The translations under genes and the position numbers were made by a program. DNA of 64,000 nucleotides from Alphaproteobacteria bacterium (GTDB taxonomy: Bacteria; Pseudomonadota; Alphaproteobacteria; Rickettsiales; SXRF01), in contig JBKDKX010000015.1 of NCBI GenBank assembly GCA_046344715.1, forward strand, positions 10,690 through 74,689, written 5' to 3'. Position 1 is the first letter of the stretch. Every line of letters begins with the position of its first letter. Under the pieces are notes generated by a model, which was not told the origin of the DNA, made no database searches, and was given only the letters and a program-made list of their open reading frames with translations. Below, one piece after another: positions 25,786 through 44,849 of the stretch.

Positions 25786-25862
25786 CGCGGGGTGGAGCAG
25801 CCCGGTAGCTCGTTAGGCTCATAACCTAAAGGTCGTCAGTTCAAATCTGGCCCCCGCAACCA
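25786..25862 (+). tRNA. initiator tRNA-fMet(CAT)
   Basis: C1/A72 mismatch, anticodon arm ttagg-ctCATaa-cctaa, T-loop gttcaaat, CCA. Confidence 0.96.
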
Positions 25863-27489
25863 TTCCGGCTTTAAATGAGCCGCCCAGAGCCAGTTTAAAA
25901 AGATTCTCAGAGTTGTAGCGAAGTTCAGCTTCTAAGTACTCATTTGAATTCGGTATTAATCGAATTTGCCCCATTAAGCCCTTCAAACACTGCCGCGCTT
26001 GGGTGACGTCTGTATAAAGGGCTTGGCCTAATCCGGCGACCAGTGCCTTATAACGCTCCACTGCGCGTGGCAGAACGGTAGTAATGATCTCTGCAGCCTT
26101 CGCATTGGCCTGTAGTTCTCTTTTAGCCCGAGCATACTCAGCTTCTGCATTCTGCAAGGCTTCCTTGGTGGTAGGGGTAATGATACCAGCCTGTATCGCC
26201 TTCATGATGTTAGCGATTTGCTCTTCTGCTTCCTTGGCTTTACGCTTTTGTGTGTCCACGTCCGGTTTCCGTGCGTTCTGCCTATTCTGTAAATCTTCTG
26301 TAATAATAGAAAGAAATACCTCCATCGCTTCGTCAGAAAGTAAGTCTTGGCGGATTATATCAAGTAAGCTGCCCTCAAGTATTTTACGCGATAAGCGCAG
26401 CCGGTTGGAACATGCCGCATCGCCACGGTTTATGTTAGTAGAGCACCCATAAGAGGTGCTGCTGTAGACGGTATAGCTCGCCCCGCAACAGCCACATTGT
26501 ATCAAGCCAGAAAATAAATACTTACCACTATGCGAGCGCGTTCTGGGATTATCCATCACTTCCCTAAGTTGATTAGATCGCTCGCGGATTTCCTTATGCC
26601 GTGCCTGCACCACGTCCCATAATGGCTGTGGCACAATGCGTAGTTCCGGCATTTCGGTTATCACCCATTCCTTTGCTTCGCGCTTGGTACGCCTGCGCTT
26701 TCCAGTATCGGGGTCTTTTCGCCATTCTGAACGGTTCCAAATATAACGGCCAATATAGAGCTGGTTATTTAAAAGCCCCGTGCCGTCATTATGGTCGCCA
26801 TAGATGGCGCTCGCCGCCCATGTAGAACCGCGTGTTGAAGATACGCCGAGGCGGTTCAGCTTATCAGCAATCCGCTTTGGGCTATCACCACCCGCAAACC
26901 ACTCGTACATTTGCTGCACCCACTTAGCTTCATCCGGGTCTATTTCACGCCTAACGGCTATGATCTCCGGCCTGCCATTGGGGTCCTTGCGTATTGGGTC
27001 TTCAATCGGCACGCGCTTATAACCATAGGTTCGCCCGCCTGCGCTGTATCCGCCCATTGCCTTGCCATACATTCCTCGATGTGTCTTTTCGCGTAAGTCG
27101 TCGAGGTACATCTCGTTCATCAGCCCGCGCATCGTGGACTGAATCTTCTCACCTTTGGTTGCTGAGTCATATCCGTCCGATACGCCAACGATGCGTAGGC
27201 CTTGGAACTTGAACCGGCGAATAACTTGCTTCATTTCCACATCGTCGCGTGAGAGCCGGGAGAGATCATCCACCAACAGCACTTTAAATTCGCGCCGCTC
27301 TGCCGCTGCAAGCATCGCCTCAAAGCCGGGACGGTTTTTGCTGGTCCCTGATATAGCCTTGTCATCGAATTGTGTGGCTAGCGTCATCCCGCATCGCTCG
27401 GCATAGCGAGTACAGTTGCGAACTTGGTCATCAATTGAGCTTTCACTCTGTTTATCACTGCTAAAACGCGCATATATAACTGTCTTCAT
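25819..27489 (-). CDS. large serine integrase
   Basis: YARFSS nucleophile, SRLSRD, recombinase domain, CGCCG..YGC..C zinc ribbon, coiled coil; GGAGG before MKTVIY; 3' end overlaps tRNA antisense. Confidence 0.95.
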   Translation of the reverse strand: MKTVIYARFSSDKQSESSIDDQVRNCTRYAERCGMTLATQFDDKAISGTSKNRPGFEAMLAAAERREFKVLLVDDLSRLSRDDVEMKQVIRRFKFQGLRIVGVSDGYDSATKGEKIQSTMRGLMNEMYLDDLREKTHRGMYGKAMGGYSAGGRTYGYKRVPIEDPIRKDPNGRPEIIAVRREIDPDEAKWVQQMYEWFAGGDSPKRIADKLNRLGVSSTRGSTWAASAIYGDHNDGTGLLNNQLYIGRYIWNRSEWRKDPDTGKRRRTKREAKEWVITEMPELRIVPQPLWDVVQARHKEIRERSNQLREVMDNPRTRSHSGKYLFSGLIQCGCCGASYTVYSSTSYGCSTNINRGDAACSNRLRLSRKILEGSLLDIIRQDLLSDEAMEVFLSIITEDLQNRQNARKPDVDTQKRKAKEAEEQIANIMKAIQAGIITPTTKEALQNAEAEYARAKRELQANAKAAEIITTVLPRAVERYKALVAGLGQALYTDVTQARQCLKGLMGQIRLIPNSNEYLEAELRYNSENLFKLALGGSFKAGMVAGARFELTTFRL

Positions 27490-27577
27490 AATTACCTCCA
27501 TGTGAACAACCGTCCAGCTTATATGGACAGGTGGGAATCGAAAGAGAAATGGTGGGCTAGTAATATAAGAGAGGTTT

Positions 27578-27620
27578 TAAGGGTTAGTGGGTTATAACCT
27601 AATAACCCCTTTAACCCTTA
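27578..27620. repeat. GGGTTA/TAACCC inverted repeat cluster (candidate origin or terminator)
   Basis: taagggtta (27578-86)/taaccctta (27612-20) and gggttat (27589-95)/ataaccc (27602-08). Confidence 0.6.
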
Positions 27621-29306
27621 TCCTGTAGCTTAACGCCGTCCCGCTTTTGCACCTGTTTTGATGCCGGAACATATTTGCCGTCTGGCGTACGTAATATGAT
27701 TCCATCGCGCACCATACGATTTAACGTCTTTCCAATACCACCCTGCTTACGATCAGTTTCTTGTGCAATTTCACGGGAACTCATCGGACGTCCCACCTGC
27801 ACCATAGCAAGCACGATCTCCTGATGTGTGCTGCTTATACGTAGTGGTACAGCATCGCCATGCGCTGTCCAAACTCCTTCATCAAAGGTCAGTGCTATTT
27901 CCTGTTCCACAACGTCACGACCACTTACATGCAATGATGCTTGAGCATTATTACGTTCACGAATCAGTACAAAATTAGTATCGGCTGAACCAGATATGCC
28001 ATTGGTTCCAGAAATCATCTCAAACGGATCATCAGAACCTTGTTTGCGCACATGATGTACCACCACAATTGCTATTGCAAAGCGGTCAGCAATTTTCTTC
28101 AGTGCGGAAACAGCCTCATAATCCTCATAGTATGAACCGCCACCTTTCGGTGTATTTCTGACCTTGGCAAAAGTGTCGATGAAGACTGCTTTGCAAGCTG
28201 GATTCTTCGCAAGCCTTCGTTCAAGCGCAAGTAGGCCTTGTTCATCCACAGACTTCCAAGTTATATGGAATTCCAACCGCCGCGCATCTTCGCGGGCAAG
28301 GTTCGGCGCAACCTTTTTTAATCGATCCTTTAATCGACGCTCAGAGTCCTCAAGAGCTAAATACAGAACCTCAGCAGCCTCGGTATCGTAAAAATTAAGT
28401 GCTCTTCGGCCAGAAGCAATGGCCACCACCAGCGCAAGTACAAGCCAACTCTTGCCGATCTTCGGTTTGCCCGCTAAAAATGTCAATCCTACTGGAATTA
28501 AGCCGGGTATTACCCAACGTATAGGCTCAATATCTTTTAGCAAAAGTTCGTCAGCAGAAATGCCTGTGCCTAGAAAAAGAGGCACTCTTTCAAGATTAGC
28601 GAATGCTTGTTTTGCCTTTTTCCCATGCAATTTTATAAAGTCATCTACGCCAACCTTCATTACTCCTGCGGGACGCGGTAAATCTATCCGAAAAGGGTTT
28701 GCGCCGTAGTTTACTAAAGCATCACGTAACGCATCCAAGGCCGCTTGTACGTTTTTCTTATACATCGGCATCAAACACGATAATGGTTTTACGATTTACC
28801 AGTTTGATATGGTTAAAATCGCTGATGACTTCTGATGATTCATCTTCTTTCGATTTCCAACCCCATACACCGCTCAAGCCAATTGCCGGACTGCCGAGCA
28901 ATGTAAGCGCAGCAGCCTTCTTTTCGCCTTCAACAATATATAAATCATCGCTGTTTACTGCGATTTTCGACCAATCGCAGAATGGTGGGAAATAAAATCT
29001 AGGTTTAGTGCCAGTAAGCTGTAAGTATTTTACAGACTTTTTCGCTCCTTGCGGTGTATATTCTTCAAGCAGTTTATATCGGCAAAATCCATTAAGCTTA
29101 CCGTCAGGGTCAAAATATGGGATTTCGTACGCCCATACTTTTGGTAGATTTTTAGGCGCAGGTTTATTTAATTTGATGTAAGCATTGCGAAATATACTTG
29201 CCATTTCGTCGGGGGATACATCACGAATTTGCATAACCTCGGCTGCTTTTTGATCCAGACAGCTATTCTTCAAATCATCAAGTGTTGGTTTCCTAAATTT
29301 AGTCAT
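27611..29306 (-). pseudogene. DUF3854-type primase fused to RepA/AAA_25 helicase, frameshifted near 28760
   Basis: ORF1 has VEGEKKA and ends at TOPRIM motif FDADV*; ORF2 continues KNVQAA..KVGVDDF then GKPKIGKS, YLALED, FIDT, VVHH. Confidence 0.8.
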
Positions 29307-30179: not shown

Positions 30180-30187
30180 GCTAATAA

Positions 30188-30424: not shown

Positions 30425-30467
30425 TATGGCTGCACAAATCTCTTGATGTGAACAGCCAAAGGAATTA

Positions 30468-30498
30468 ATCCTAAAATAGAATTATCCCAAAATAGGAT
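30468..30498. promoter_or_regulatory. tandem palindromic operators
   Basis: atcctaaaatagaat (30468-82) and atcccaaaataggat (30484-98), 16-bp period, in the divergent intergenic region. Confidence 0.7.
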
Positions 30499-30511
30499 AT
30501 TTAGGAGTAAT

Positions 30512-30982
30512 GTGTTGCCAGATAACGTAGACAAATTAGATGGCAAAGCATTAATGGATGCCTATCGATTTGTCCGCATCGGAAGCATAATAGCCCCTAA
30601 CCCAGTAACATTCTCAATCGAAATTCATTTAACTGAGGCTTTGTCATGGGAAAAAGCGATTTACATATTCGTATTTAATAATGAGATTGTGCGCGTGGGA
30701 TCGTCCAAAGGGCGACTCGGAAGGCGAATGAAAGAATGGTGTCGCTGCGTTACCAATGCGCTTCACAGAGTAAATGGACTGCCTGCCAAAAAAACAGTCA
30801 CACCCGATTGGGAAGCTCGTGGATGGAGCAAACTTTTAAATGCTCATGGCAGTGGGGAAATTTATGCCCGCGAAGCCACCGAAGTCACCACTCCGGTGGG
30901 CTCATTTAGGGCATATATGGACGAAGAAAGTATCCTCATAAATCGCCATAAGCCCAAAATGAATAGGCACAAAAATCGCTAG
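30512..30982 (+). CDS. GIY-YIG-like nuclease
   Basis: AIYIF..IVRVGSS..LGRRM..E.ILI..P.MN pattern. Confidence 0.6.
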   Translation: MLPDNVDKLDGKALMDAYRFVRIGSIIAPNPVTFSIEIHLTEALSWEKAIYIFVFNNEIVRVGSSKGRLGRRMKEWCRCVTNALHRVNGLPAKKTVTPDWEARGWSKLLNAHGSGEIYAREATEVTTPVGSFRAYMDEESILINRHKPKMNRHKNR

Positions 30983-31046
30983 GTTTTCGGTAGCAGCAGT
31001 TTTTGCATTATAGCTTTAGCTATTTTGAGATGGTCTCTAAAATTAA

Positions 31047-32384
31047 TTATGCTACTTCAAAAAGTTTGTAATTTTCAGAGGCTAAGACTGATAAGGATAA
31101 ATACGCTTTTTCGTCACCTTCAATGAATTTAATAATTTTGTTTAATACCATACCCATCGCACGCGCCATTAGAGGGGGGATTGCATTACCTACTTGCGCA
31201 CAGCGGGATACATCCAATTTTCTTCTCTCACCATTTAAAGTATATCGACCATAAAAATGGAAATCATCAGGAAAAGACTGAATCCGCGCCATTTCCCTAA
31301 TGCTGACATTTCGTGGGTACAAGTAATGGATAATTTCATCTGGATGTGTAGTTAGCGTAGAGCATGGTTTTTTGGGGTCTAACAAAAATTTCTTGTCTGT
31401 TTTAGTGCCACTTGCGAGCAAGAATTCTTTACTGAGCCTACCTTTCGGCTGAGTTTTGTGCGCGGCAATATAAAGACTACGAACTTTTGGCCCATGCTGT
31501 GAAAAACGATGGGAATTTGGGATCGATTTATTAGAAATACCCCTTCGCATTAGCTTCGCATATGTGCTTTTCGCTGGTAAGTATGTTGTGGATGGGAATT
31601 TAGGAGAGTCAGGACAAACAACTTCTGTGGCATTAGCCAAATCATGTAATGCTTCTTCAATATTTACTGGCCTATCTAAGGGTAAATTTAGCTCTCTTCG
31701 CTGTTCTAGAGATACCGATGCAAAGTAATTCTCGATAAGATTTTTAACATTAGATATGTCTTTTAGTTGTTTCTTGATTCCAACTATTACAACGCGTTTG
31801 CGCTCTTGCGGAACCCCATAGTCAGATGATTTAATTGTTGTAAATCCTGACGAATAACCTAGTTCCCGCAAACGCGCTAAAACTAAAGTTGCTACACTTT
31901 CTTTTAGCTGTCCTGGGCGTGCCTTAAAAGGGCGCGCAATTCCTTCTACATTTTCAATCATAACCAACGGTGGTTCAACGAGCTCAACGAGCTCAAGCAT
32001 CTTAAATGCTAATTCGTTCCTAGGGTCATCGCCATTGCGTAAACCACCAACTGAAAAACCTTGGCAGGGTGGTCCCCCGCAGATTAGAGAAATTTTCCCA
32101 TTAAGGCCCTTTAACTTTTTTCTAATACCCTCATCATTCAATAAATTCTCAATAGTATAATTTTGTTTTGGGAGCCAATTTGGCCATTTTTCAAAGTGCC
32201 CATAAGGCGCATCTGCGCACATCATATTCTTAGAGATAGTCTCAAATGCCATTGCATCTTTCTCGATGGCAAATATACCTTCCCATCCAGATTGTAATAA
32301 CCCTAAAGACAATCCTCCACAGCCAGCGAAGGCATCTATATATGTCTTTTTATTCAATAATTTTATTAGGTCTTCATTTTCCAT
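31047..32384 (-). CDS. DNA cytosine-C5 methyltransferase
   Basis: FAGCGG, GGPPCQGFS, ENV, PQ.R.R, SIREMARIQSFPD, QVGNA. Confidence 0.96.
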   Translation of the reverse strand: MENEDLIKLLNKKTYIDAFAGCGGLSLGLLQSGWEGIFAIEKDAMAFETISKNMMCADAPYGHFEKWPNWLPKQNYTIENLLNDEGIRKKLKGLNGKISLICGGPPCQGFSVGGLRNGDDPRNELAFKMLELVELVEPPLVMIENVEGIARPFKARPGQLKESVATLVLARLRELGYSSGFTTIKSSDYGVPQERKRVVIVGIKKQLKDISNVKNLIENYFASVSLEQRRELNLPLDRPVNIEEALHDLANATEVVCPDSPKFPSTTYLPAKSTYAKLMRRGISNKSIPNSHRFSQHGPKVRSLYIAAHKTQPKGRLSKEFLLASGTKTDKKFLLDPKKPCSTLTTHPDEIIHYLYPRNVSIREMARIQSFPDDFHFYGRYTLNGERRKLDVSRCAQVGNAIPPLMARAMGMVLNKIIKFIEGDEKAYLSLSVLASENYKLFEVA

Positions 32385-32453
32385 ATATAGCCACTACTTT
32401 AGGTTATCTATACTATATATAGCAGAAAAAGAAATGGGGTTTTAGAAATATCT

Positions 32454-33236
32454 TCACTTCTTGTTTTGAGTATCTAACAACTTATTCAAGTAATCGTGTA
32501 CATCAACCCCTGCCTTAAGAGCTGTATTTCTTAACCATTCAATATTCTCACTTGATATTCTTATAGGCGCGAATTTTTCAGGATATGCCCAACTGCATTT
32601 GAAACAATCTAGTTTACAACCTCGGCACGCGGTACTTTTAAAATTATTGCATTCCCCGCACAAAGGTTGCCAATTTTCTGAACTGTCGCCACCGCCCCGT
32701 ACTCGTGGAATTTTATGGTCTTGGTCAAACCTAACTTCAGGTTCTTTCCTCCCGCATACTGCACAAGAAAACTGATACTTACTTAGAACCGCAGACCAAT
32801 CCGCGTCAGATAATTTTACTCGTGGAATTCTTTTTGGAGAAAGTGCTAAATTTATAAGTTGGTATGTATTCCCTTGCCTTGCAATACCCGTGAGACCTTC
32901 CTCCCCCTGTAGTTCACGGACACGTCTAAACACATCAACATAAGGTTTATATACTGTGGTTTGATCGTGTTGGGATAATCTAAATTTATCTACTGCAGCA
33001 CGAAATTGTTCCGTTTTTATGTGGGGGCCGGGAATCTTATGCCCTGATGGCCAGAGAGTTTCTAACATTACTTTATAATATTGGCGGTTTGCTTTACTTA
33101 GCGAAACAAATTCTTTGACAACACCTTCAATCCAAGCGTCCCTTTCCTTGTCATTGGCAGAAGGCGTTCTATCAGGGGCCACAAGCTCTAGAAACTTTTG
33201 CCTTCCTTTGCTTTTTTTAGGTGAATTTTCTGACAT
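32454..33236 (-). CDS. HNH endonuclease, probable restriction endonuclease
   Basis: CAVCG..DHKIP..GG..NWQPLCGECNNFK; co-oriented upstream of the MTase. Confidence 0.85.
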   Translation of the reverse strand: MSENSPKKSKGRQKFLELVAPDRTPSANDKERDAWIEGVVKEFVSLSKANRQYYKVMLETLWPSGHKIPGPHIKTEQFRAAVDKFRLSQHDQTTVYKPYVDVFRRVRELQGEEGLTGIARQGNTYQLINLALSPKRIPRVKLSDADWSAVLSKYQFSCAVCGRKEPEVRFDQDHKIPRVRGGGDSSENWQPLCGECNNFKSTACRGCKLDCFKCSWAYPEKFAPIRISSENIEWLRNTALKAGVDVHDYLNKLLDTQNKK

Positions 33237-33415
33237 TTTGATAGGTTATGTGATTTAAGATATTACCCTGTTTATCACACCAATCTGAAATTGGTAGCTC
33301 AGTTGCCGTGTAAGCACAGTATTTTAATCCAAGACGAAACATTGGACGCTAGAAGAAAAGGGATTATGCTAAAAAACCTATTGTAATAGGATGAAATTTC
33401 TCAGAGTAAAATGCA

Positions 33416-33500
33416 ATGTCTAGTATTAAACTTAAAAATGTAGAAATAGACTATTTTCGTTCTATTAAGTAGTTATATTTCGATTTTCCAGAAAGTAAGC
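33416..33500 (+). pseudogene. remnant of ABC/SMC-type (AAA_15/OLD-like) ATPase N-terminus
   Basis: MSSIKLKNVEIDYFRSIK*LYFDFPE; in-frame TAG, no Walker A follows. Confidence 0.5.
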
Positions 33501-33649
33501 GGAAACGAAAACCTAAAGTATGCAATGCGGAACGTACAATAATTTCTGGCTTCGTATTCTTTGAGCGAATACGGGACATAATCCAGCTTCGATAATTAGG
33601 GGATTTCATGCTTACCATGCAATGTTTAGGTCAATCGCTAATATGAAGA

Positions 33650-34765
33650 TTAAGATAGAAGCTCACGGATAGCTTTACCCCTCAATTCGCGTTGAGCCTT
33701 ACGCCCAACGCTTTCGCGTGCTGCAAGTGTATAATCATCAGGCACCTGTCTTGAGAATTCCAACAGCCGTTTCCGAGCTTCGTCCTGAGGTAATTGCCTT
33801 AACGTAGCATTGCGGCTCAGTTCGACGGCCAAGCTAAAGAAATTAGCTTTATTCCACCACATCGATGAATCCGGAATATCAATTCCAGAAATAAATTCGG
33901 CGCTATCATTAATTGCAGTGATGACTTCATCATGTTCAGGAAAATCTTGTGCTTTTTCATCAAGATATTTTCTTACTCTATCATTACGCTGATAATAGCC
34001 ATCCATAAATGTACACATCAGGTTGAGTGTAAACATTAATGGTACTTTCCGATCAAATTCGAATGCGGTAAAAATGGATTTAGCTCTAACCAATTTAGAA
34101 AAGGGGCCATCTGCAGTTTGAATAACCCATTCCCAAGTTTTTTCATCGATTCCAGGATCTTTGCTGAATAAATTGCTTGCCAGTACTTCTAGATTACCAT
34201 CTTCGCTACCAACATCACCAAGTTCATCACTGTCTGAAACCTCATTGGAGATTTCTCCAGAGAGGGCTCGCGCTACTAACATAAATTCAGATGCAGAATA
34301 TTCTGAAGCTAATTTTTCGATAGCGGAGAGTGAGTAAAATGTTCTATTAAGCCTACGAAACACATCTTTTAGGCGTTCATCACCTGCATCCAGGTCAAAA
34401 TCAATTACAGGAACTTCATACTTCAAAAATATTTCACGTTCTGATGTAGTAAGATCTTTAAAAACTTTTCCATCAACAGTTAGGTTGCCATTAATAAATT
34501 CGCGAATTGTATTAAGGCGTTGCTGGCCATCTACTACAGCTTGGCTAGCTTGCATAGTATCCAAATCAATTGGCCCTCTAGCCAAAAAAATTTGGGGAAA
34601 TGGGTAGCCTTTTAAGATCGTATCAATAAAGTCGCGTTTATGGGTATCGCGCCAAACAAGGTTTCTTTGGAAATATGGCGATAAAGTAAGGCGTGCACTG
34701 CGCATTGCTGACACTAAGTCAATAATTTCCCTGGAACGCACAGTGTATTTTAAATCATTTTGCAT
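33650..34765 (-). CDS. DUF262 (GmrSD-N/ParB-Srx-like) protein
   Basis: PYFQRNLVW, VVDGQQRL, VFRRLN; no HNH/DUF1524 motif seen. Confidence 0.9.
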   Translation of the reverse strand: MQNDLKYTVRSREIIDLVSAMRSARLTLSPYFQRNLVWRDTHKRDFIDTILKGYPFPQIFLARGPIDLDTMQASQAVVDGQQRLNTIREFINGNLTVDGKVFKDLTTSEREIFLKYEVPVIDFDLDAGDERLKDVFRRLNRTFYSLSAIEKLASEYSASEFMLVARALSGEISNEVSDSDELGDVGSEDGNLEVLASNLFSKDPGIDEKTWEWVIQTADGPFSKLVRAKSIFTAFEFDRKVPLMFTLNLMCTFMDGYYQRNDRVRKYLDEKAQDFPEHDEVITAINDSAEFISGIDIPDSSMWWNKANFFSLAVELSRNATLRQLPQDEARKRLLEFSRQVPDDYTLAARESVGRKAQRELRGKAIRELLS

Positions 34766-34767
34766 AT

Positions 34768-35358
34768 CTACCCCATCAAAGTTGAAAGTGCGCTATCTTG
34801 TTTCCAGCAGAATGCATACTCATTCATATATACTGCTAAAGTAATTCGATTAAATGTCGCGGTATGTTTACGGCTTATCTGTCCTTCAAACTGCTTATGT
34901 AATTGGCTAAGCTGAGATTTAGGCATAACCTTAATTCTAATCATGCCGCGCTTAAGTATTTGTTCTTTAAATAGCTCAATCTGCTCAACACTCATGACCC
35001 CAAAAGGCGTGGAATCTGTAAAGCTACGAGTTGCTTTTACTATATCGATCCAAAGCTTTTGAAAAAGATCCGTATTTACGCACGCAACATCAAGATCAGA
35101 GATGGCCAGTTCAAAAAGCTTATCCTTGTATATGCTAAACCCTAATTGTGCAGAACCACAAAAATGAATACTTGAGTATGGAATTTTAAAATATTGGGAA
35201 ATCTCTGTCTTGATATCGAATTCTTTTTCCCTTTGCCGACTTAGCGAAGCAGGCCTTTCTTCTATGAACAGACGGCGTGCACGCATCTCTCGATCTGCAT
35301 ACCTAGCACCTATCGACCGAACCTGTTTCTTTAATTGTTCAAGCACTGTTTCCATCAT
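34768..35358 (-). CDS. Pol-beta-like nucleotidyltransferase-fold protein
   Basis: hGS (CGSAQLGFS) followed by SDLDV; 2 bp from the DUF262 start. Confidence 0.7.
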   Translation of the reverse strand: MMETVLEQLKKQVRSIGARYADREMRARRLFIEERPASLSRQREKEFDIKTEISQYFKIPYSSIHFCGSAQLGFSIYKDKLFELAISDLDVACVNTDLFQKLWIDIVKATRSFTDSTPFGVMSVEQIELFKEQILKRGMIRIKVMPKSQLSQLHKQFEGQISRKHTATFNRITLAVYMNEYAFCWKQDSALSTLMG

Positions 35359-35720
35359 TCGAAAACTCTAGTCGAGCGCAAAGCAATTGTACATCCTTGA
35401 AAGATTACGAAATGAAGTTAAAAATAGTTGGCCAAGCGGTTAACACTTATCTATTTTGGAATGGTAAAGTGCCTTCGACTGACGTTTAATATCATCAAAA
35501 ATCGTCATCGGGTTGGACAGCGCTATGACTGATAATACAGTCAGGAAACATTCAAACCCCAATGCCACCATTCTTGTTAATACAAGAAAGAAACAAGATA
35601 AAAGCCCCACTGTTAATACAATGGGAAAACAGTTAAAATGGTGGGCTTCAAGCAAAGGTTAAGGAGCGTTACCCAGTGGTCGCCCTAGAAGTCCCATAAA
35701 CCGACATTGGAGTCCTTTAG

Positions 35721-35835
35721 CTAGGCGGGTCTAGGTAGGCATCGCTTAACCTTAAACTCGACCTGCTGTCCTTTTATGGGAATCCGCACTATAAGGGCTG
35801 GGGGTTCGGTATTAATGTTTGAGCTAAATCGCGCC
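35721..35835 (-). repeat. internal copy of element right end / integrase tail
   Basis: cttttatgggaatccg..ctataag.gctgg..tattaa.gtttgagctaaatcgcgcc shared with 39123-39231. Confidence 0.88.
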
Positions 35836-36139
35836 GCCACATCCCAAGAATTTTGTTCTAAATCTGAGTTTTAAAAGCCATTTAAAGTTAGAACAAAAGC
35901 GCGTGCCCACATTGTGTTAGATGCTGAAGGCCGTGACGTTTGCTGCTGTACTAAGATTTTACTGCTCGGATTTCACTTTTTGTGTTATTTTTCTAATAAT
36001 TCTAGTAACTTAGATTACCTTAAGGGAGTGCAAATATTCTAAAATTCTTTACGCAAAATAATTACTTTACTTTTCTTAACCTCATAATAGGCTACTATCT
36101 ATCCCCTGTAGATAAAAAAAAATATAATAGGAGAAAGTT

Positions 36140-39088
36140 ATGACAAATGGAATATCGAGTGAGTTAAGCAGAGCCTTAGATTTGATTAAAGATAGAAAGG
36201 CATGGCCGTCTTCTGCAGCATTCGACAGCCACTTTTCTAATGCAGGGGTAGCTTCCAAATTTGAGCATGCCGCCCAGAAGGGCGATCTGTACGCAGCAGA
36301 ACGTATGTACCGTGTCTATAATGATTGGAACCAAAAATTAGATTCATATAGCGGCCAATATGGGTCTTCATACTACGTACATGTGTACACTATCGATTCA
36401 GAGGCAGCAGAAAGAATTCGTGGAAAAACTCTATCTGAAGTAGCACTTGATTATCCGTCAAATGCGTATTTCCAATCTGGAAGAAGACAACTGCAATGGA
36501 GACCACTTAGTGCTCTTGACATGTGTGTTTACCAAACAACTTATGATGCAAGAACTAAACACTCGTTTATACCCGACCACTATTCATTAAGAACTGATAG
36601 TGAGTCAGAAAAACCAGAGGTATATTTAGGAAGTAGTAAAATTACCACGGAACTAAGCGGTCTATCTGTGGCGGCTGCGTCTGGTAGCGCGGCAGCTGCT
36701 GATATACTTGGTAAATTCTATGATGTTGGTAGCATTACGTACGCAGCGTTTCTCCGCAATAAAAGAGCTGGCAATCCACATTACAACAGCCAAAAATCAG
36801 GTTATTATTCACGTCTACACAACTTCCTCACCGGCAAAAATGATGCGATGTATGGGGAGTACGTTGATGCACGCCTGAAAGACCCCGAAGGTATGTATGA
36901 TGTGGCGGAAGCGATTATCACAAATCAACATGTACGAAAATCATACAATCAGAAGAATGGCATAGCTGGCGATTCTGACCAAGGCGCACGAGATATACTT
37001 AAAAATGCAGCAAACCTTGGTTATGCCAATGCTGCGTGGCGGTTGGCGCGTCTGCATCATGAGCAATATATCATGACTGATAGCAAAACCGAGCTACAGC
37101 AATTGTTCCATTGGTATAAAAAAGCGGCAGAGCTTGGTAATAAGGAAGCAAGTCATCATATTGCGTATTTCAAGGCGCAGTTTCCAGATATTGAAGCCAC
37201 CGCAGCTTCGCTGGATAAGGTAGCAGTAAGCAACCCAACATCTGACTATCTGGCAAAACGCCCCGATGCTCTGGGTGAAGTGGTGATACCGGAGGCGGAT
37301 ATTGCATTCTTAAAATCACATAATCCAGATATAAAGGGAAGCCTGACCACAGCATCTAGCCTGCTTGATAAACAGCTCGGTGAAATGGACAAGTTTATGT
37401 CTGCGCTACAGGCAAAAATAAAAGTCTTGTTGGATAACGCAACACGTCTTGCCGAAGCGCAAGCTGCTATCGCCGGACGTGAAGACCAGATTCATCAACG
37501 CGTACAGGCACTTCATGAGATGAGAATGATACTGGCCGATGATAAAGGTCGAGGGGCTGAAGGTTGGGTATCAGGTGCAAATACCTTATTAATTACAGCA
37601 AACCCCAAGTTGGCTATTTTAGATGGACTCATGCGCTCGACTTTAGAAAAAGTAGGTACGTCTAACCAAGGAGGGTCTTTTGAAAATTATTTAAAGGCTC
37701 AGCGAATCAAGGTGGAGCTAGTGCGTGAGGAAGTAGCTAATATTGACCAAGCCATTGCGGCCACAAGGGGCACAGCACTGGTTAAAAGTATTCAAAAAGA
37801 CGAAGTGTCACAACGTCGTCTGCTTTCGGCATACCTGAAAAAGACACTTATTGACCAAGGGTTAAAGAATATTGCCTCACTAGAACCAATTGCAAAACAA
37901 CACGGCTTTAATTCGGTTGACCATTTAATCTCAGTAAGTGCCAATATTGCAGGTGACCAAGGAATGCTTGCAGGCGCATTGGGTGCATTTGTGCGTGGAT
38001 TTGCAGATACTAAGGATATGGAAACAATCATTGCACACGCTAACCGCCACACACTAGGCGGCAAAGAGTCTGAATTTAAGGTGACAAATGCTATAGTAAA
38101 TTTTGTTGAGCAGGTTATTAAACCAAATATAGACCAATATTCTTCCCTTGCATCACGCGTGGATGTGCTTAAAGCCGAAGGTGTTGATTTTGTGCAAAAC
38201 CCTAACGCCACACTTGCCACCAGAGACTACAAAAATCCGACCTTTGTCAAAACGTTGCTTGAAACTGAGTATAGCGTTTCAGGAAGCGCAGAAGTGGCAA
38301 AAATGTTTGACCACTCCATGCACAGGCATGGCAAACATGTCATTTATGACCCAACAGCGGATGGGGTGCAACACACCAAAAAAACCATAGATTTGGTTGA
38401 GCCGGATGAGGTCAGGGAATATAGCGATCTCGTGGCACAAAAAAGCAAACGTGGTGACAGGACACTTCCTCCTATGCCAAGCTTATTTACAAGAACCTGC
38501 GCAAATGAATACCTCACCCCATTGACAAAAAAACATGCTGAATCGACTAAATTTCATGATAGGCCGGATGCAGCACTTGCCTATGTAACTGCTACCCATG
38601 TGGTCGCAGATTTTATCGATAAGATGTCATTAAGCCCTCTGGCCAAATATAGGGCGACCCTAAAAGATAAATCATTAGTGGATAATGTTATTGCCCAGAC
38701 ATTCTTTGATTTCTTCAGCAGCATGGGTGTTGCACACAAAGCTAATTTTGCCGCTGGGTTTCAAGATGTAGAACGAAAATTTGGTAGTGGTGATTTTACC
38801 AAAGCAAGTTCAGATCTGGGACGGGAAATATCAAAAGATATGCTTGCACAATATGACGTATATGCAAAGTTGCTTGAAGCAAATTTAAAGAAGTCTCTCT
38901 CTGACAGCATTGCCCCAGAAGCAAGGCAATTACTGGCACAACTTGATGCCCTAGAAAAAGAAGGAGTTTCTATTGTAAAGCCTGAGATCATCAAAAATCA
39001 TGCCAGCCAGTATCTTGATGAATTGCGTACGCGAGAGATGGCGTTTGAGAATATGAGTCCGGCTGCACGCAGCTTGAGGGGAAAATAA
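36140..39088 (+). CDS. 982-aa Sel1-like repeat protein
   Basis: LKNAANLGYANAAWRLA, WYKKAAELGNKEASHHIA; AGGAG RBS; coiled-coil middle. Confidence 0.8.
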   Translation: MTNGISSELSRALDLIKDRKAWPSSAAFDSHFSNAGVASKFEHAAQKGDLYAAERMYRVYNDWNQKLDSYSGQYGSSYYVHVYTIDSEAAERIRGKTLSEVALDYPSNAYFQSGRRQLQWRPLSALDMCVYQTTYDARTKHSFIPDHYSLRTDSESEKPEVYLGSSKITTELSGLSVAAASGSAAAADILGKFYDVGSITYAAFLRNKRAGNPHYNSQKSGYYSRLHNFLTGKNDAMYGEYVDARLKDPEGMYDVAEAIITNQHVRKSYNQKNGIAGDSDQGARDILKNAANLGYANAAWRLARLHHEQYIMTDSKTELQQLFHWYKKAAELGNKEASHHIAYFKAQFPDIEATAASLDKVAVSNPTSDYLAKRPDALGEVVIPEADIAFLKSHNPDIKGSLTTASSLLDKQLGEMDKFMSALQAKIKVLLDNATRLAEAQAAIAGREDQIHQRVQALHEMRMILADDKGRGAEGWVSGANTLLITANPKLAILDGLMRSTLEKVGTSNQGGSFENYLKAQRIKVELVREEVANIDQAIAATRGTALVKSIQKDEVSQRRLLSAYLKKTLIDQGLKNIASLEPIAKQHGFNSVDHLISVSANIAGDQGMLAGALGAFVRGFADTKDMETIIAHANRHTLGGKESEFKVTNAIVNFVEQVIKPNIDQYSSLASRVDVLKAEGVDFVQNPNATLATRDYKNPTFVKTLLETEYSVSGSAEVAKMFDHSMHRHGKHVIYDPTADGVQHTKKTIDLVEPDEVREYSDLVAQKSKRGDRTLPPMPSLFTRTCANEYLTPLTKKHAESTKFHDRPDAALAYVTATHVVADFIDKMSLSPLAKYRATLKDKSLVDNVIAQTFFDFFSSMGVAHKANFAAGFQDVERKFGSGDFTKASSDLGREISKDMLAQYDVYAKLLEANLKKSLSDSIAPEARQLLAQLDALEKEGVSIVKPEIIKNHASQYLDELRTREMAFENMSPAARSLRGK

Positions 39089-39122
39089 TCCGCCCTTAAT
39101 GTTGCTTTGAGCGTCTTTAGGC

Positions 39123-39241
39123 TTAACCCATTCGGTTAACTCTAACCTTGCTTTGTTGCCCTTTTATGGGAATCCGGACTATAAGTGCTGGAGGCTCGTT
39201 AGGGTTATTAAAGTTTGAGCTAAATCGCGCCCCCGCAACCA
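39123..39241 (-). other. attR with in-frame alternative integrase C-terminal tail
   Basis: Minus strand reads VAGARFSSNFNNPNEPPALIVRIPIKGQQSKVRVNRMG* in the integrase frame across the att core. Confidence 0.8.
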
Positions 39242-39308
39242 ACACCACAGACAATCTCCGAGGATTGGCAAAAATCACACAATCTTCTGGTGCCGCATTT
39301 TCAGGATG

Positions 39309-41528
39309 TTACGCGGGGGTAAAAAACACTTTGACCCGCATTGTCTCTGCTTTAATAGCGGTGAGCATCTCCAGTTTTTGGGTATCGTTGTGCTCGAAAT
39401 TAGCTTCGGCACGTTTGCAGAGATGATGTAGTTGCGTTGCGCCTAAGTTGCCTGAGGATCCTTTGAAGCGGTGGGCAGCAGATTTCCACGCATCATTTTT
39501 ATCTGCGCCCATGCTTTGTTCCAGAATTACAATCATCTCCTGCGCTTGTTCTAAAAACAGATCAGCGAGCGCCTTTTCTTCCGCAGGGTCACCATCGGTA
39601 AACAGGCGAAGCTGCTCCATATCAACAGGTTCTTCTTTGGTTTCCTGTGATACAGCAATTTCTGGTTTTGCAGCGTTGATAATGGATTTGGTTTCATCCA
39701 GCACAAACCACGCTTCTATAGTTTTCTTCAAATGTTCGGCACGCAATGGTTTGCTCAAATAATCATCCATACCAGCATTTAGGCATTTCTCACGGTCGCC
39801 CATCATTGCGTTGGCGGTCATGGCAATAATCGGAACATGGGTAAGCCCAGAAGACTCACGCACACGAATCTCCTGCGTTGCGATGTATCCATCCATCTTA
39901 GGCATTTGACAGTCCATAAAAATCATATGATACCTGTTGCTATCATATTTCATTACCGCTTCAAAACCGTCCTCAGCTTTATCGATATGGCGGAAGCCAA
40001 ATTTACGCAGCAGCTTCTCAGCAAATACCTGATTCACAGGGTAATCTTCCACCAGCAACACATGTGCTTCACTGATATGAATCTTTCCAACACAATGGTG
40101 GCTTAAGTTTCTTAAGCTCTCAATCGTTACTGCTTCATCTATTGGGCTTGCAGGATTATAGGGAATAGCAAACCAGAAGGTAGAGCCTTTACCTAAAGCA
40201 CTTTCGACACCGATTTCACCTCCCATGAGTTGAACAAGTTGTTTAGTGATAGCAAGTCCTAAACCTGTGCCGCCATACTGGCGTGTGACTGTACTATCGG
40301 CCTGCGTAAATTTTTCAAAGATTTCGCTGAGTTTCTCAGAGGGAATACCCATGCCGGTATCCTCCACCGTAACATACAGCCTGTCGCCATTTTTGTGCTC
40401 CTGTATGCTTGCCTTGATTCGCACATGTCCCTGCGCGGTAAATTTAATAGCATTGCCAACAAGATTCATAAGGATCTGGCGAACACGCCCTGGATCTCCC
40501 CAGATATGTGTGGGCACTTGCGAATCTGCGCTTACCACCAGATCAACACCTTTCTTTTCCGCCTGTGGACGCAGTAAGTTACCGGTTTTATGCAATGTAT
40601 CGATAAATCCAAACGCGATATTCTCAAGCGCGAGCGCGCCTGCCTCAATCTTTGAGAAATCAAGAATATCATTGAGTAGCATCAGCAGATTCTCGCCGGA
40701 GCTATTAATAGTGGAAACAAATTCTTTTTGCTCAGCATCAAGTGGGGTATCTGCAAGTAATTGTGCCATTCCTAGCACGCCATTCATCGGCGTACGAAGT
40801 TCATGGCTCATATTGGCAAGGAAGTCGCCCTTTGCCTTGTTGGCCGCTTCCGCCTTTTCTAAACTTTCCTTCAAATCGCGGGTGGCTGCTTCTGCCTTCA
40901 TGTTGGCGCGCTTAAGCTGCAACCACATGTTTTTCTCTTTGAGTTCTTCTTGTTTCTTTGCGGTAATATCGCGTTCAATGGCAGCGAAGTGTGTTACTAT
41001 GCCATCGGTATTCCTGACCGGTACAATACTAATGTCTAACCAGTAATTTGTACCATCTTTACTAACATTAAGCAGCTCGTCCTTAAATGGTTTTCCTTCG
41101 AGCAATGCCGCTTTCATTGCATCAAGCGTTTCGCGCTTTGTAAATTCACTTTGCAGAAAGCGTGGTGATTTTCCAATGGCTTCATCTGCGGTATAACCGG
41201 AGATTTTTGTGAATGCTTCATTGACATACATAATCTCTGGGCCTGGATTTTTTAGATCTGCATTTGTAATGATAATGCTGTCATTAGCGCTTTTTAATAC
41301 TGTTTCAAGCAATGCTGCTCTTTCACGCAGTGTCGCTGCCAGACGTATTTGCGGACGAAACACAAATATTGTCATAATAATAAGGAATGCAACGGCTCCC
41401 ATAAAAGCGATGTGACTAATGATATCGGTTAATGTTTCTGGTGGATCAATGATGATATGCAGGACGGCAGTTCCCAATACCAGGGCAAGGGAAAAATAAA
41501 ATATTGGAACGGTATATTTTGTCTGCAT
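39309..41528 (-). CDS. hybrid histidine kinase (TM-PAS-HisKA-HATPase-REC-HPt)
   Basis: MSHELRTP, NLVGNAIKF, GTGLGL, MDCQMP, AHRFKGSS; start placed at MQTKY. Confidence 0.95.
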   Translation of the reverse strand: MQTKYTVPIFYFSLALVLGTAVLHIIIDPPETLTDIISHIAFMGAVAFLIIMTIFVFRPQIRLAATLRERAALLETVLKSANDSIIITNADLKNPGPEIMYVNEAFTKISGYTADEAIGKSPRFLQSEFTKRETLDAMKAALLEGKPFKDELLNVSKDGTNYWLDISIVPVRNTDGIVTHFAAIERDITAKKQEELKEKNMWLQLKRANMKAEAATRDLKESLEKAEAANKAKGDFLANMSHELRTPMNGVLGMAQLLADTPLDAEQKEFVSTINSSGENLLMLLNDILDFSKIEAGALALENIAFGFIDTLHKTGNLLRPQAEKKGVDLVVSADSQVPTHIWGDPGRVRQILMNLVGNAIKFTAQGHVRIKASIQEHKNGDRLYVTVEDTGMGIPSEKLSEIFEKFTQADSTVTRQYGGTGLGLAITKQLVQLMGGEIGVESALGKGSTFWFAIPYNPASPIDEAVTIESLRNLSHHCVGKIHISEAHVLLVEDYPVNQVFAEKLLRKFGFRHIDKAEDGFEAVMKYDSNRYHMIFMDCQMPKMDGYIATQEIRVRESSGLTHVPIIAMTANAMMGDREKCLNAGMDDYLSKPLRAEHLKKTIEAWFVLDETKSIINAAKPEIAVSQETKEEPVDMEQLRLFTDGDPAEEKALADLFLEQAQEMIVILEQSMGADKNDAWKSAAHRFKGSSGNLGATQLHHLCKRAEANFEHNDTQKLEMLTAIKAETMRVKVFFTPA

Positions 41529-41538
41529 AACTACCCTG

Positions 41539-42393
41539 TTACATTGACTGCTTGCGATGGTGCAGCGCGCCATTTCTAATATACTGGCGCATTTTTTCTT
41601 TCTTGAAAGGCTTGGCTATGAAACCAGAGGCACCGCTTGCAAGTGCTGTGGTGACATTATCCAGATAGCTGTTTGAGCTAAACATTACCACATAGGCATC
41701 TTTATCGCTTGCCATGATTTGATGCAGCACATCAAAACCGCTGGCATCTGGCAGGCCTATATCAAGAAATACAATATCTGGCGCGTGCAGAAGATAATTA
41801 GCAACCGCGTCATGGGCGTTAGCTGCAGTAATTATTGCATAATTTTCCTTGAAAGCACTGGCTGTAATGCGTCGTGTCAGTGGGTCATCCTCAACCACCA
41901 TAATGTGAAGCGGCATACGTGCCTTGCGGAGTTTCTTTGCTTCAGCAAAAATTGCTTCAAGTGCCGCCGTTTCACCAAAGTTATGGGTGTTGGCTTTTTG
42001 GAGTGCGGGCCGCGAAGCATCTGTTTTGGTTAACAACAGCTCGCGTACATTTTTCCAGTCTGTTGACATGTCATAGAATGTACATCCTGAAGTGGTACCT
42101 TCCGATAGTGATGCGGCATTAATAAATTCATCGGCAATTGCGTATAGCTGTGCATCCTGTAGGTCGCGGCTTATGAAGAGAACGTCATTGTCAGCACAAT
42201 GCACCAGGTCGCAATCAATATCGGTATGTGTCTTTTTGATCTGCGAAATGATGGCTGTGCGGCAGCCAGCAATGTTTTCTTCATTATGGCCAATGTGCAG
42301 GCAATGCCAGGCTTCCAGGCTTTTATGGTCTTTGCTGATTGCTGTCGTCAGATTATGAATAAAGGATGTAGTATTTTCGGTATGTATGCGCAC
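41539..42393 (-). CDS. response regulator, unknown N-domain plus C-terminal REC
   Basis: VVEDD, FLDIGLPD, FIAKPF. Confidence 0.88.
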   Translation of the reverse strand: MRIHTENTTSFIHNLTTAISKDHKSLEAWHCLHIGHNEENIAGCRTAIISQIKKTHTDIDCDLVHCADNDVLFISRDLQDAQLYAIADEFINAASLSEGTTSGCTFYDMSTDWKNVRELLLTKTDASRPALQKANTHNFGETAALEAIFAEAKKLRKARMPLHIMVVEDDPLTRRITASAFKENYAIITAANAHDAVANYLLHAPDIVFLDIGLPDASGFDVLHQIMASDKDAYVVMFSSNSYLDNVTTALASGASGFIAKPFKKEKMRQYIRNGALHHRKQSM

Positions 42394-42399
42394 GTTAAG

Positions 42400-43272
42400 T
42401 TACTCCTTTGCCTGTTGGATGGTTGGGCAACGCTCAATGTATTGAAATAGCTTTTCTTTGGTGAATGGCTTGGCAATAAAGCCTTTTGCGCCCTTGCTCA
42501 TTGCCTGCGTAATATTCTCGCGGTCACAATTACCGCTGAGCATAATCACATGAGCATCAGGATCGAGTGCTATAATTTTTTCAAGCAACTCATGCCCCGT
42601 CACGTCTGGTAAGTTAATATCAAGAAAAAGCAGGTCTGGTGCTATTCTGGCATAGGTATCGAGAGCGTAATTTGCTTCTCCAAGTCCTGTGAGTGAATAT
42701 TGTTTCTGGAGCACATTTTCTACCAGCCTGCGTGAGAATGTATCATCCTCGATCATCATCAGCTCAGGCTTTGTACGGCTTGCACGGCGACTTTTGATAG
42801 CGTCTGATTTTATATTGGCACTACCATTTAATATAGCCTGACGCTTGCGTTCCTGTTGTTGTTGTTCAAGGAGTTTACGTTTTTCCTGATCTGTTCTTCT
42901 TTGAATTTCTAGTTTTTTTTCAACAACCCGTAATAATTTACTTATATGCAGCGATACTTCATAAAAATTGACCCAATCGTCGTTGGCCGGTTTATTAAGA
43001 TAGGTAGCAATGGTTACTATAAATTCCCTGCCGTCTTTAACAGGAATAGATGGTGCGAGGATGAAGATATCTCCATCCCCGCATAAGTAAATCTGAACAT
43101 CGATTGCTAAAAAATAGCGCTGTGCCAGTTCAAACACTTTTTCATTCATGTCTGCTGGTTTTTGGCTATCCATCAGGTTAAAATGGATACAACGCGATGT
43201 TTTGGGGTCAGCTCTGAGAATTCCCAGTGCTGCTTCTAATTTCCCCTCTGCTTGTTCATCGATAAGTATCAT
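42400..43272 (-). CDS. response regulator, unknown N-domain plus C-terminal REC
   Basis: MIEDD, FLDINLPD, FIAKPF. Confidence 0.88.
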   Translation of the reverse strand: MILIDEQAEGKLEAALGILRADPKTSRCIHFNLMDSQKPADMNEKVFELAQRYFLAIDVQIYLCGDGDIFILAPSIPVKDGREFIVTIATYLNKPANDDWVNFYEVSLHISKLLRVVEKKLEIQRRTDQEKRKLLEQQQQERKRQAILNGSANIKSDAIKSRRASRTKPELMMIEDDTFSRRLVENVLQKQYSLTGLGEANYALDTYARIAPDLLFLDINLPDVTGHELLEKIIALDPDAHVIMLSGNCDRENITQAMSKGAKGFIAKPFTKEKLFQYIERCPTIQQAKE

Positions 43273-43427
43273 AATGTTTTCAACCTATGGCTTCATTATT
43301 GCAAGTTTTTATCTCATGTCATAATCGATAAGTATCAATAGGTTAAGAAATTGAGGCGATGATAAATTCTCAAAATACCGTTCGATTTTGAGAATAAAAT
43401 GTGCTATATTCCTAGAATGCTACGAAC

Positions 43428-44822
43428 ATGAGGGCAAAGGTGACTATCACTATCCTGATTGCAGAAGATGACCCCATACAAAGCAAAATGCTTGCTATGT
43501 TACTTGGTAAAAAACTGGGCTACAGGGTGCTGACTGCCTCTAATGGCACAGAGGCAGTAGATCGCGTGCAGGCAAGTAGCGTGGGCGAAATCAACGCGGT
43601 GCTGCTGGACATCAATATGCCAGTGATGGACGGATTTGAAGCATTAAAAAACATCCGCAAATACCGCCCTGATATTCCCGTACTGATGCTCACCGGTAGC
43701 GATGACACAAATGTTGCCGTAAAAGCCATTAAGGAGGGCGCAAGTGATTTTATTGTCAAACCGCCAGATCCAACCCATCTCGATATTGCTATTAAAAATG
43801 CTATCCGGCTTTCTGCGCTCTCGCAAGAGCTTGCAAAGCTTAAACGTGACAAGGAAGGTGCAACTGCTTTTACTGATTTAATAGGCAATAATGGAGGGCT
43901 GGCATCTGTTGTTGCCTATGGGCGCAAAGCGGCGGCCAGTGATGTTCCGGTATTGCTTATGGGAGAAACAGGCGTAGGTAAGGAATTGTTTGCGCGCACC
44001 ATTCATGGCGAGAGCAAGCGGGTAGGGGCACCCTTTGTGTCAATTAATTGCGGCGCTGTATCGCATAATATCGAACAAACACTTTTTGGCGTGGCAAACC
44101 CCGCTGCTCCCAATCAGATCGGAAAACTTCGCGCCGCAGAAGGTGGAACGCTATTCCTTGATGATATCACAGAACTTTCTCCTGATGCACAGGTACGGTT
44201 ATTGCGCGTCTTGCAACAAAGGGAGATAGAGCCACAAGGCGGTGGCAGGCCGATTAAAGTGAATGTACGGATTATTTCTGCCACGGATCGCGACATCAAG
44301 CGCGATGTGCAAACGGGCCGTTTCCGTGAAGATTTGTATTTCCGGCTGAATGTATTGCCCATTACCATTCCGTCCCTGCGTGAGCATAAAGAAGATATAT
44401 TGCCACTGGCAGAGTATTTTATTCAGCGCATTGCCATTTCTGACCGCTTAACACCCAAAACTCTAGATGCGGATGCGGCTGATTACCTGATGCATCACGC
44501 ATGGCCAGGCAATGTCCGTGAACTAGAAGGGCTCATTCACCGTGCACTAGTACTTTCTGATGCAGATTCAATAGATCGCACTCTGCTAGAGCAGATTCAT
44601 GAATCTGCTACCTCCGCAAAACCGATGGAACGCCGTGCGCCTGCGGCGCTCCATATCAATATGCGCAATGCAGACGGCAGCTTCAAAACCATGGACGAAA
44701 TTGAGGCAGAAGTGCTGCGTACCACGCTGGCGCATTTTGAGAATAACATCACCCGCGCTTCGGATATCCTTGGCATTGCTAAATCCACCTTTTACCGGAA
44801 AATAAAAGCTGCTAGTAATTAG
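43428..44822 (+). CDS. NtrC-family REC-AAA+-Fis regulator lacking GAFTGA
   Basis: GETGVGKE, FREDLYFRL, WPGNVREL, Fis HTH; GAFTGA loop replaced. Confidence 0.92.
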   Translation: MRAKVTITILIAEDDPIQSKMLAMLLGKKLGYRVLTASNGTEAVDRVQASSVGEINAVLLDINMPVMDGFEALKNIRKYRPDIPVLMLTGSDDTNVAVKAIKEGASDFIVKPPDPTHLDIAIKNAIRLSALSQELAKLKRDKEGATAFTDLIGNNGGLASVVAYGRKAAASDVPVLLMGETGVGKELFARTIHGESKRVGAPFVSINCGAVSHNIEQTLFGVANPAAPNQIGKLRAAEGGTLFLDDITELSPDAQVRLLRVLQQREIEPQGGGRPIKVNVRIISATDRDIKRDVQTGRFREDLYFRLNVLPITIPSLREHKEDILPLAEYFIQRIAISDRLTPKTLDADAADYLMHHAWPGNVRELEGLIHRALVLSDADSIDRTLLEQIHESATSAKPMERRAPAALHINMRNADGSFKTMDEIEAEVLRTTLAHFENNITRASDILGIAKSTFYRKIKAASN

Positions 44823-44849
44823 CAATTATTGCAATCAGCAGGAGAGTAT

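Follow-up and report, generated by a model that had tools for sequence, protein, structure and literature searches.

The 64-kb window analysed here (64,000 nt of contig JBKDKX010000015.1, assembly GCA_046344715.1, from an alphaproteobacterium of the order Rickettsiales; all positions count from its first letter) carries a 13.4-kb composite island at the sole canonical initiator tRNA gene (25786-25862), and in this island lie two diverged copies of a start-less repeat, tail A and tail B (Table 1). These repeats are probably the far ends of two related elements stacked at the 3′ end of the initiator tRNA, each end comprising a recombinase-binding arm (P arm) and a C-terminal coding tail, and the gene of their large serine recombinase (LSR) would span its own attachment site (att). 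The island can be read as a 10-kb LSR element (~25852-35834) plus a 3.4-kb recombinase-less unit (~35835-39230). A first-pass annotation had called the repeats integrase tails; as start-less coding ends of a recombinase gene they fit that name, but the Pfam domains identify the enzyme as an LSR and not as a tyrosine integrase. The main points of interest are the att-spanning serine recombinase gene and a set of conserved inner joints that are unexplained.

Two related tails delimit a 3.4-kb segment

Both copies lie where the first-pass annotation had placed them, and their minus-strand translations agree with it: positions 35834..35724 read ARFSSNINTEPPALIVRIPIKGQQVEFKVKRCLPRPA and then a stop (tail A), and positions 39230..39126 read ARFSSNFNNPNEPPALIVRIPIKGQQSKVRVNRMG and then a stop (tail B). 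A repeat search aligned the two in blocks of 70 nt at 79% identity and 35 nt at 89%, with a spacing of 3390-3396 nt. The 23-nt arm adjacent to the core is found twice in the window at ≤3 mismatches (0 and 1 mismatch, with 22/23 nt kept in tail A), compared to zero matches expected by chance (100 shuffles). In the 15-codon block EPPALIVRIPIKGQQ, which has 11.7 synonymous and 33.3 non-synonymous sites, tails A and B differ by seven synonymous and no non-synonymous changes (Fisher p ~2e-5), and all seven fall on the 15 third positions of the 45 nt (chance 1.4e-4). The only indel between the copies comprises two codons (6 bp), so the earlier description of silent differences and a single 6-bp indel is accurate. 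At the C-terminal end, tail A has the usual ..KRxLPxxA.

The repeats bracket a separate 3.4-kb segment, as had been proposed. The inner junction is covered without any difference by contigs of four runs from four different studies (35619-36175, 35566-36711), and contigs of three of these four runs also cover the outer junction (39112-39704, 39003-39776). Because independent contigs reproduce the junctions in this way, the two-copy arrangement is not an assembly artefact, and the chimera that had been considered as an explanation is not borne out. A terminator-like hairpin with a T run is located at 35605-35626 (-), ~95 nt past the tail A stop on the tail strand, and none comparable follows tail B.

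The recombinase gene reads across the attachment core

The LSR contains the Resolvase (PF00239, 1.2e-29), Recombinase (PF07508, 3.3e-20), and Zn_ribbon_recom (PF13408, 2.8e-9) domains, and has the resolvase catalytic domain together with the Recombinase domain, the zinc ribbon, and, judged from long helices in the structural model, the coiled-coil insertion of its class. The catalytic serine motif YARFSSDKQ is found at residues 10-18, with Y10, R12, S14, and Q18 invariant in 18 homologues. In the integrated state, the last 10 residues (ARFELTTFRL) and the stop codon are antisense tRNA, and the protein ends in ..KAGMVAG|ARFELTTFRL*. Relative to the core, this frame is identical to that of tail B (..VAG|ARFSSNF..), and recombination of attL with attR would yield an LSR of 550 + 35 residues carrying tail B instead of the 560-residue form. 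The core lies within the recombinase open reading frame (ORF), whose C-terminus would change on integration. This layout is not restricted to the window. Core and arm are contiguous in the LSR frame at all 11 tRNA-type joints among the loci examined, and 20 of the 24 LSR homologues fetched end in antisense-tRNA residues.

The 13-nt core gcccccgcaacca forms an exact repeat at 25850-25862 and 39229-39241 and occurs nowhere else in the 2.08-Mb assembly. In the would-be circle, the core is surrounded by an imperfect 48-bp palindrome (TTTAAAG..CTTTAAA) that is centred in the GGGGG run, and conservation among 23 joints from many genomes breaks ≤1 nt from this centre. The palindrome may mark a short serine-integrase att site (~40-50 bp with a central dinucleotide). 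In an AlphaFold2 model of the LSR (mean pLDDT 75), the catalytic, recombinase, and zinc-ribbon domains and long helices (372-509) are present, and residues 542-560, beyond the last hairpin (510-529) and helix (531-538), are disordered (pLDDT < 50). Since the crossover falls in this disordered stretch, the tail swap at the core spares every folded domain in both forms of the modelled enzyme.

An LSR end joined to a tail was found in a metagenome ORF of 107 aa (P0049), in which residues 37-74 match positions 514-551 of the LSR profile (hhalign 97.6%, E 2.9e-12; 64% identity to P0008 over 36 aa) and the tail follows in frame. The ORF P0044 is similar but shorter, with LSR profile positions 535-553 followed by the tail. 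The frame shared at all tRNA-type joints, the antisense-tRNA ends of most homologues, and P0049 together suggest that the tail is linked to the LSR.

Other features of the recombinase and its relatives were noted. The tail starts with ARFSS, the same five residues as in YARFSSDKQ (27462-27476 (-) vs. 39216-39230 (-)), and at the DNA level the first 13 nt of the arm match the 5′ end of the LSR gene at 12 positions, which may be due to chance or reflect a binding site in its own gene. The LSR homologues P0015 and P0020 contain a short tail-like or duplicated core segment within the ORF before the antisense-tRNA end (..VAGDRNGLNLTDPIKVRLVAGARFELTTFRL and ..VASGRGSNFNAHEDDALKARVVAGAGFEPAAFRL, respectively), and these segments look like scars of earlier recombination. 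Relatives on plasmids and phages are at best 30-36% identical. One of them, a recombinase with 35% identity on the conjugative Bradyrhizobium barranii plasmid pBb323S2b (20004-21700), ends in ..VAGIGFEPMTFRL and adjoins a tRNA 3′ fragment, with no tail and no intact tRNA within 41.6 kb; elements of this clade seem to carry the antisense-tRNA end along with them.

Coding signature of the tails

The set used for the coding tests comprises 17 tail copies from 13 genomes, which were collected by tblastn in the tail frame and are therefore biased towards that frame. Beyond the arm, the proportions of synonymous (pS) and non-synonymous (pN) differences are 0.66 and 0.26, respectively, and the ratio of non-synonymous to synonymous rates (dN/dS), which had been set beforehand as a test over more copies, is 0.21 and not near 1. 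Differences at the three codon positions amount to 0.30/0.21/0.58 beyond the arm and to 0.07/0.04/0.17 within it (first eight codons). The first eight codons (ARFSSNFN) are constrained as DNA, consistent with their prediction as a recombinase-binding arm. The codon-level conservation that had been noted for the tail is found beyond the arm, and the arm itself is better described by constraint at the DNA level. The tail frame is stop-free in all 17 copies, compared to 0/17 for three other frames and 2/17 for a fourth; the tails stop at similar places, and five of the 17 end in ..AA.

Alternatively, the tail could be a small independent gene that is expressed from the right junction and encodes a peptide of ~40 aa. 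Its start would be the codon straddling the core, which, owing to the base that follows the tRNA end, reads xTG (ATG, GTG, or TTG) at 11/11 outer joints, and in the window the kinase gene has the same orientation as tail B and lies immediately upstream of it. Yet in the inner copies the frame stays open and the conserved residues persist although a start is lacking and stops lie just upstream, and the flanks that would have to provide a promoter and ribosome site are unrelated between genomes (35% aligned identity), making such a gene highly improbable.

Just as little can be expected of the idea that the conservation is not protein-coding in the tail frame, and instead reflects nothing but the attachment site, or else a gene or RNA encoded on the opposite strand. 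In its favour, constraint at the DNA level is clear for the first 23 nt, and the antisense frame, which shares its wobble positions with the tail frame, is open in 13 of the 17 copies with a dN/dS of 0.29. However, this frame has stops in the other four copies and no conserved start (M in 6/17), and an Rfam scan of positions 35000-40000 returned no family at E ≤ 1. A serine-recombinase site of ~50 bp is too short to account for the period-3 variation 45-110 nt from the core. Likewise, a tRNA origin of the tail was rejected, as local alignment past the core shows no more than chance likeness to the tRNA for 15 of the 17 copies; the exceptions are a 10-nt match in tail B, reached in 3/300 shuffles, and one other copy (9/300).

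The inner joint differs from the tRNA end

The inner copy (tail A) adjoins gccgccacatccc and not the tRNA end, confirming what had been noted in the first-pass annotation. Compared to the tRNA-type half-site, the inner joint differs at 4/11 positions beside the predicted crossover. A total of 23 joints were compared, of which 12 lack the tRNA-type core, including nine inner ones. The same G-to-C change is present in six of these nine inner joints, a core-less extra arm copy lies ~70 nt away in six of the 12, and the variant inner layout recurs in five genomes of two families. Judged from these sequences, the shared variant is not random decay. Apparent LSR remnants upstream of inner joints (..LEL..) turned out to be the extra P-arm copy read in another frame, and hhalign comparisons of two inner joints with the LSR profile did not support a C-terminal LSR remnant (probabilities of 1% and 6%).

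The inner joint has consequences for excision. Recombination between attL and the inner site would join the tRNA body to gccacatccc, resulting in a tRNA without the acceptor 3′ strand and CCA, and use of the inner end would be costly to the host because the sole canonical initiator tRNA would receive a wrong 3′ end. It was suggested in the first-pass annotation that the element may have two alternative excision ends; neither product was found in the contigs of the four runs, and with an inner joint that differs from the tRNA-type half-site and whose use would break the initiator tRNA, this suggestion is doubtful. For the same reason, the 3.4-kb unit with its variant half-site is unlikely to have ever been located directly on the tRNA. 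Since tails A and B differ at 38% of their synonymous sites but have almost the same arm, the likeliest course is that each belonged to an active element of its own while they diverged, and that they came to be co-located only later.

Alternatively, the island could be a single 13.4-kb element, in which the inner copy is an internal duplication of its own end or a product of homologous recombination and the gene for the 982-aa protein is ordinary cargo. We consider this unlikely, although the island has a single LSR, the inner half-site does not resemble the tRNA end and could not have restored a tRNA, and the inner layout occurs with its extra P-arm copy in the five genomes mentioned above as if it were travelling within an element. 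The synonymous divergence between tails A and B is too large for a recent internal duplication. Furthermore, the closest LSR among the genomes searched (genome G358, 71% identity) belongs to a 9.5-kb element that shares the replication genes, has a Dsr1-like defence gene, and carries one tail at a core, without an inner copy. Recombinase-less segments with tail boundaries are also found directly beside the tRNA in other genomes (loci L057, L064, and L065), which argues against a single element.

The gene between the two tails, described as captured in the first-pass annotation, encodes a protein with weak Sel1/TPR-like repeats at ~264-342 (PDB 6deh_A, E 2.9e-5, residues 268-342), and the Atlas gave leads only (under 0.9). 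Relatives with 25-31% identity are found in eight other genomes of the 401 of the order; in the two of these genomes that also bear tails (G050 and G358), they lie on contigs other than those with the tails.

Distribution of the tails

Tails are present in 16 of the 401 genomes of the order, in two families (7/40 and 8/40 genomes, respectively). Two to three tails lie on one contig in six of the 16 tail-bearing genomes, which agrees with the stacking of related elements proposed in the first-pass annotation. The three other species of the genus are too diverged at the DNA level for an alignment of the locus.

A tail profile search of 1.84 billion representatives resulted in 12 matches, namely seven ORFs of 47-110 aa and five long repeat proteins. 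The P-arm pattern had no match in viral contigs; in metagenome contigs it was found at five loci, all of which lack an upstream LSR, and a tail query of genome contigs found one locus, an orphan tail in a genome without an LSR match to P0001.

Proposed course of integration and excision

In the circular form of the element, the LSR ORF would run through the 13-nt core into ~35 more codons, the tail. Integration would cut the gene at the core, so that the chromosomal copy ends in 10 antisense-tRNA residues and a start-less tail is left at the opposite end of the island. The window would then contain two such units in series, the 10-kb unit with tail A, in which the LSR is accompanied by a replication module, a restriction-modification pair, and a DUF262 gene, and the 3.4-kb unit that lacks a recombinase and carries the 982-aa gene and tail B. 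The tail would be translated solely from the excised form, and the silent differences between tails A and B may have accrued while both belonged to active elements. Workable excision would probably involve the whole island by recombination of attL with the outer attR, and the tail may modulate the enzyme made from the circle, affecting its integration competence or its turnover.

Several observations weigh against this reading. No circle or empty-site junction was found in the four runs, of which only contigs, which drop rare forms, were available; the one joint listed (40679/40801) lies inside the kinase gene. A full-length LSR with a tail was absent both from the 1.84 billion representatives covered by the profile search and from the longer proteins in a word-indexed collection. 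P0049 is encoded on a contig of 1157 nt, its first 36 residues are not LSR-like, and it may be a fossil and not a live circle. An LSR at E ≤ 1e-40 is found in only four of the 16 tail-bearing genomes, on the same contig as a tail in three, so the tails mostly occur without an LSR. Tail B stops 4-5 residues before the usual ..KRxLPxAA end. In addition to the collection bias and the largely open antisense frame noted above, the wobble changes that discriminate between the two frames favour the tail frame by 169 vs. 48 pair-sites, but by only 6 vs. 5 columns.

A wider interpretation is speculative and has only a modest chance of being correct. The tail could act as a state switch, with the LSR made from the circle carrying a conserved module of 35 residues that allows integration or targets the enzyme for turnover, and the chromosomal form behaving differently. 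The recombinase-less segments could at the same time represent a class of hitchhiking cassettes that have their own conserved inner half-site and extra P arm and attach to resident LSR elements at the far end of these, forming an integron-like array at the initiator tRNA that is moved in blocks.

Comparison with known systems

Serine integrases are prized as simple one-way tools for genome engineering, and the direction of their reaction is attributed to a separate directionality factor. A recombinase that rewrites its own C-terminus would, if true, represent a new way of coupling the form of an enzyme to its integration state. tRNA genes would join the list of serine integrase targets, and start-less tails could serve as annotation markers, each recording one past insertion and delimiting defence or accessory units beside the initiator tRNA. 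In 2014, the Islander authors stated that targeting of tRNA genes was not known for serine recombinases (PMC4383910). Our full-text searches, with subscription journals and supplements outside their range, found no serine recombinase gene spanning attP at a tRNA, and the accessible text of PMC12884075 is silent on this too.

The layout itself has precedents. According to the accessible text of PMC4383910 and the title of its reference 24 (Tojo et al. 1996), the ORFs of Mx8 IntP/IntX and of SSV-type archaeal integrases extend across attP, and integration into a tRNA gene alters the C-terminus. As far as these sources go, the attP within the integrase gene and the C-terminus changed at a tRNA gene are common to these systems and the window. 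In contrast to these tyrosine recombinases, the enzyme here is an LSR that keeps its folded domains whole and exchanges only a tail of ~35 residues, so the likeness is one of layout and not of family.

Among serine recombinase systems, staphylococcal cassette chromosome (SCC) elements target rlmH. The ssrA islands of Dehalococcoides, with the CcrB-like serine recombinase DsiB, are arranged in tandem downstream of one small-RNA gene and were compared with SCC; in the available text, each island has as its boundary a repeat of the 3′ end of this gene, next to which lies a conserved motif, and many units lack an integration module and are interpreted as cis-mobilizable (PMC3146451). Judged from this text, the islands share with the window the units in series, the recombinase beside attL on the reverse strand, and the presence of recombinase-less units. 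The units here are likewise in tandem, but the inner repeat is a variant and not an exact copy. The Dehalococcoides islands, as described in the part available, target ssrA and have a second, small serine recombinase (DsiA/CcrA), whereas the target here is tRNA-fMet and Pfam detected no second Resolvase-domain protein among the island ORFs scanned. A coding tail or an att-spanning gene does not feature in the accessible part of that account (PMC3146451).

The recombinase of mycobacteriophage BPs is a tyrosine integrase. In this phage, the attP lies inside a gene, the C-termini of the free and integrated forms differ, and the free form, which is the longer one, bears an ssrA-like tag for degradation, according to the available text (PMC4557955). 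As described there, BPs resembles the window in its split gene with a state-dependent C-terminus, and the ..AA ends of some tails recall its tag; unlike here, the split gene of BPs encodes the repressor. A degron role for the tail would be a guess from this analogy. The tycheposons of Prochlorococcus are cargo elements stacked at tRNA genes with partial tRNAs and degenerate remnants, many of which carry replication genes, and 27 of 937 use a large serine recombinase, as stated in the text available (bioRxiv 10.1101/2020.12.28.424599). They differ in that most have tyrosine recombinases, and the accessible main text does not mention a recombinase gene spanning attP. Integron cassettes (IntI and attC) differ from the island as well, since Pfam scans found no tyrosine recombinase in it and its repeats show coding-type period-3 variation.

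Gene content of the island and its surroundings

The features of the island are listed in Table 1. By ARAGORN, the gene at 25786-25862 is the only canonical initiator tRNA gene in the assembly. A divergent initiator-like tRNA with anticodon CAT and an unusual D arm is located on another contig (G000 C23:82326-82400); it starts with TGCGGGG, ends in ..CCCCCGCAACCA, and has 12/13 core bases in common with the island target. The replication-type module is syntenic with that of the G358 island (47-85% tblastx identity).

Table 1. Features of the composite island at the initiator tRNA gene and its right flank
Feature	Position	Strand	Description	Evidence
Initiator tRNA-fMet gene	25786..25862	+	Anticodon CAT, C1:A72 mismatch; integration target	ARAGORN, sequence reading
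LSR (P0001)	25819..27501	-	560 aa as integrated	Pfam, AlphaFold2 model
attL core gcccccgcaacca	25850..25862	+	Predicted crossover ~25851/25852	
AAA_25 protein	27611-28774	-	Replication-type module (27611..29306)	Pfam
DUF3854/Toprim-like protein	28758-29306	-	Replication-type module	Pfam
Trans_reg_dom gene	29529-30179	-	Regulator-like	Pfam
HTH_3 gene	30188-30424	-	Regulator-like	Pfam
C5 cytosine methylase	31047-32384	-	Type II restriction-modification pair	Pfam; PADLOC MTase_II 1.6e-77
HNH endonuclease	32454-33236	-	Type II restriction-modification pair	Pfam; PADLOC REase_II 1e-14
DUF262/GmrSD_N-like protein	33650-34765	-		Pfam; PADLOC NsnA 1.5e-19 for 33650..35358
196-aa protein	34768-35358	-	Without family; partner of the DUF262 gene	Pfam
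Tail A	35721..35834	-	37 codons + stop; 23-nt binding arm (P arm) 35812-35834	
Inner joint, variant half-site	35835..35845	-	ggatgtggcg.. in place of ggttgcgggg..; boundary of 10-kb LSR element and 3.4-kb segment	
Extra P-arm copy	35882..35904	-	Core-less, degenerate (5/23 mismatches); ~70 nt from tail A	
"Captured" gene	36140..39088	+	982-aa protein; no Pfam or PADLOC family	
Tail B	39123..39230	-	35 codons + stop; P arm 39208-39230; in frame with LSR across core	
attR core	39229..39241	+	Displaced copy of tRNA 3′ end; chromosomal flank beyond	
Hybrid histidine kinase	39309..41573	-	PAS, HisKA, HATPase_c, receiver, Hpt; outside island, in flank	Pfam

The kinase gene in the flank is syntenic in two other genera of the family by tblastx. 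In another genus (genome G194, locus L061), a syntenic kinase/response-regulator block is accompanied by a core at 3409-3421 and a tail with core at 10193-10303, 6.9 kb apart. By comparison with this locus, the chromosomal flank of the window (39225-45218) may itself be an old cassette.

Finally, a second LSR-like ORF of 539 aa with Resolvase and Recombinase domains is encoded at 15110-16729 (-), ~1.2 kb from a tRNA-Gln gene (13877-13951 (+)). Together with the 196-aa ORF located between this LSR-like ORF and the tRNA-Gln gene, it may belong to another tRNA-linked element.

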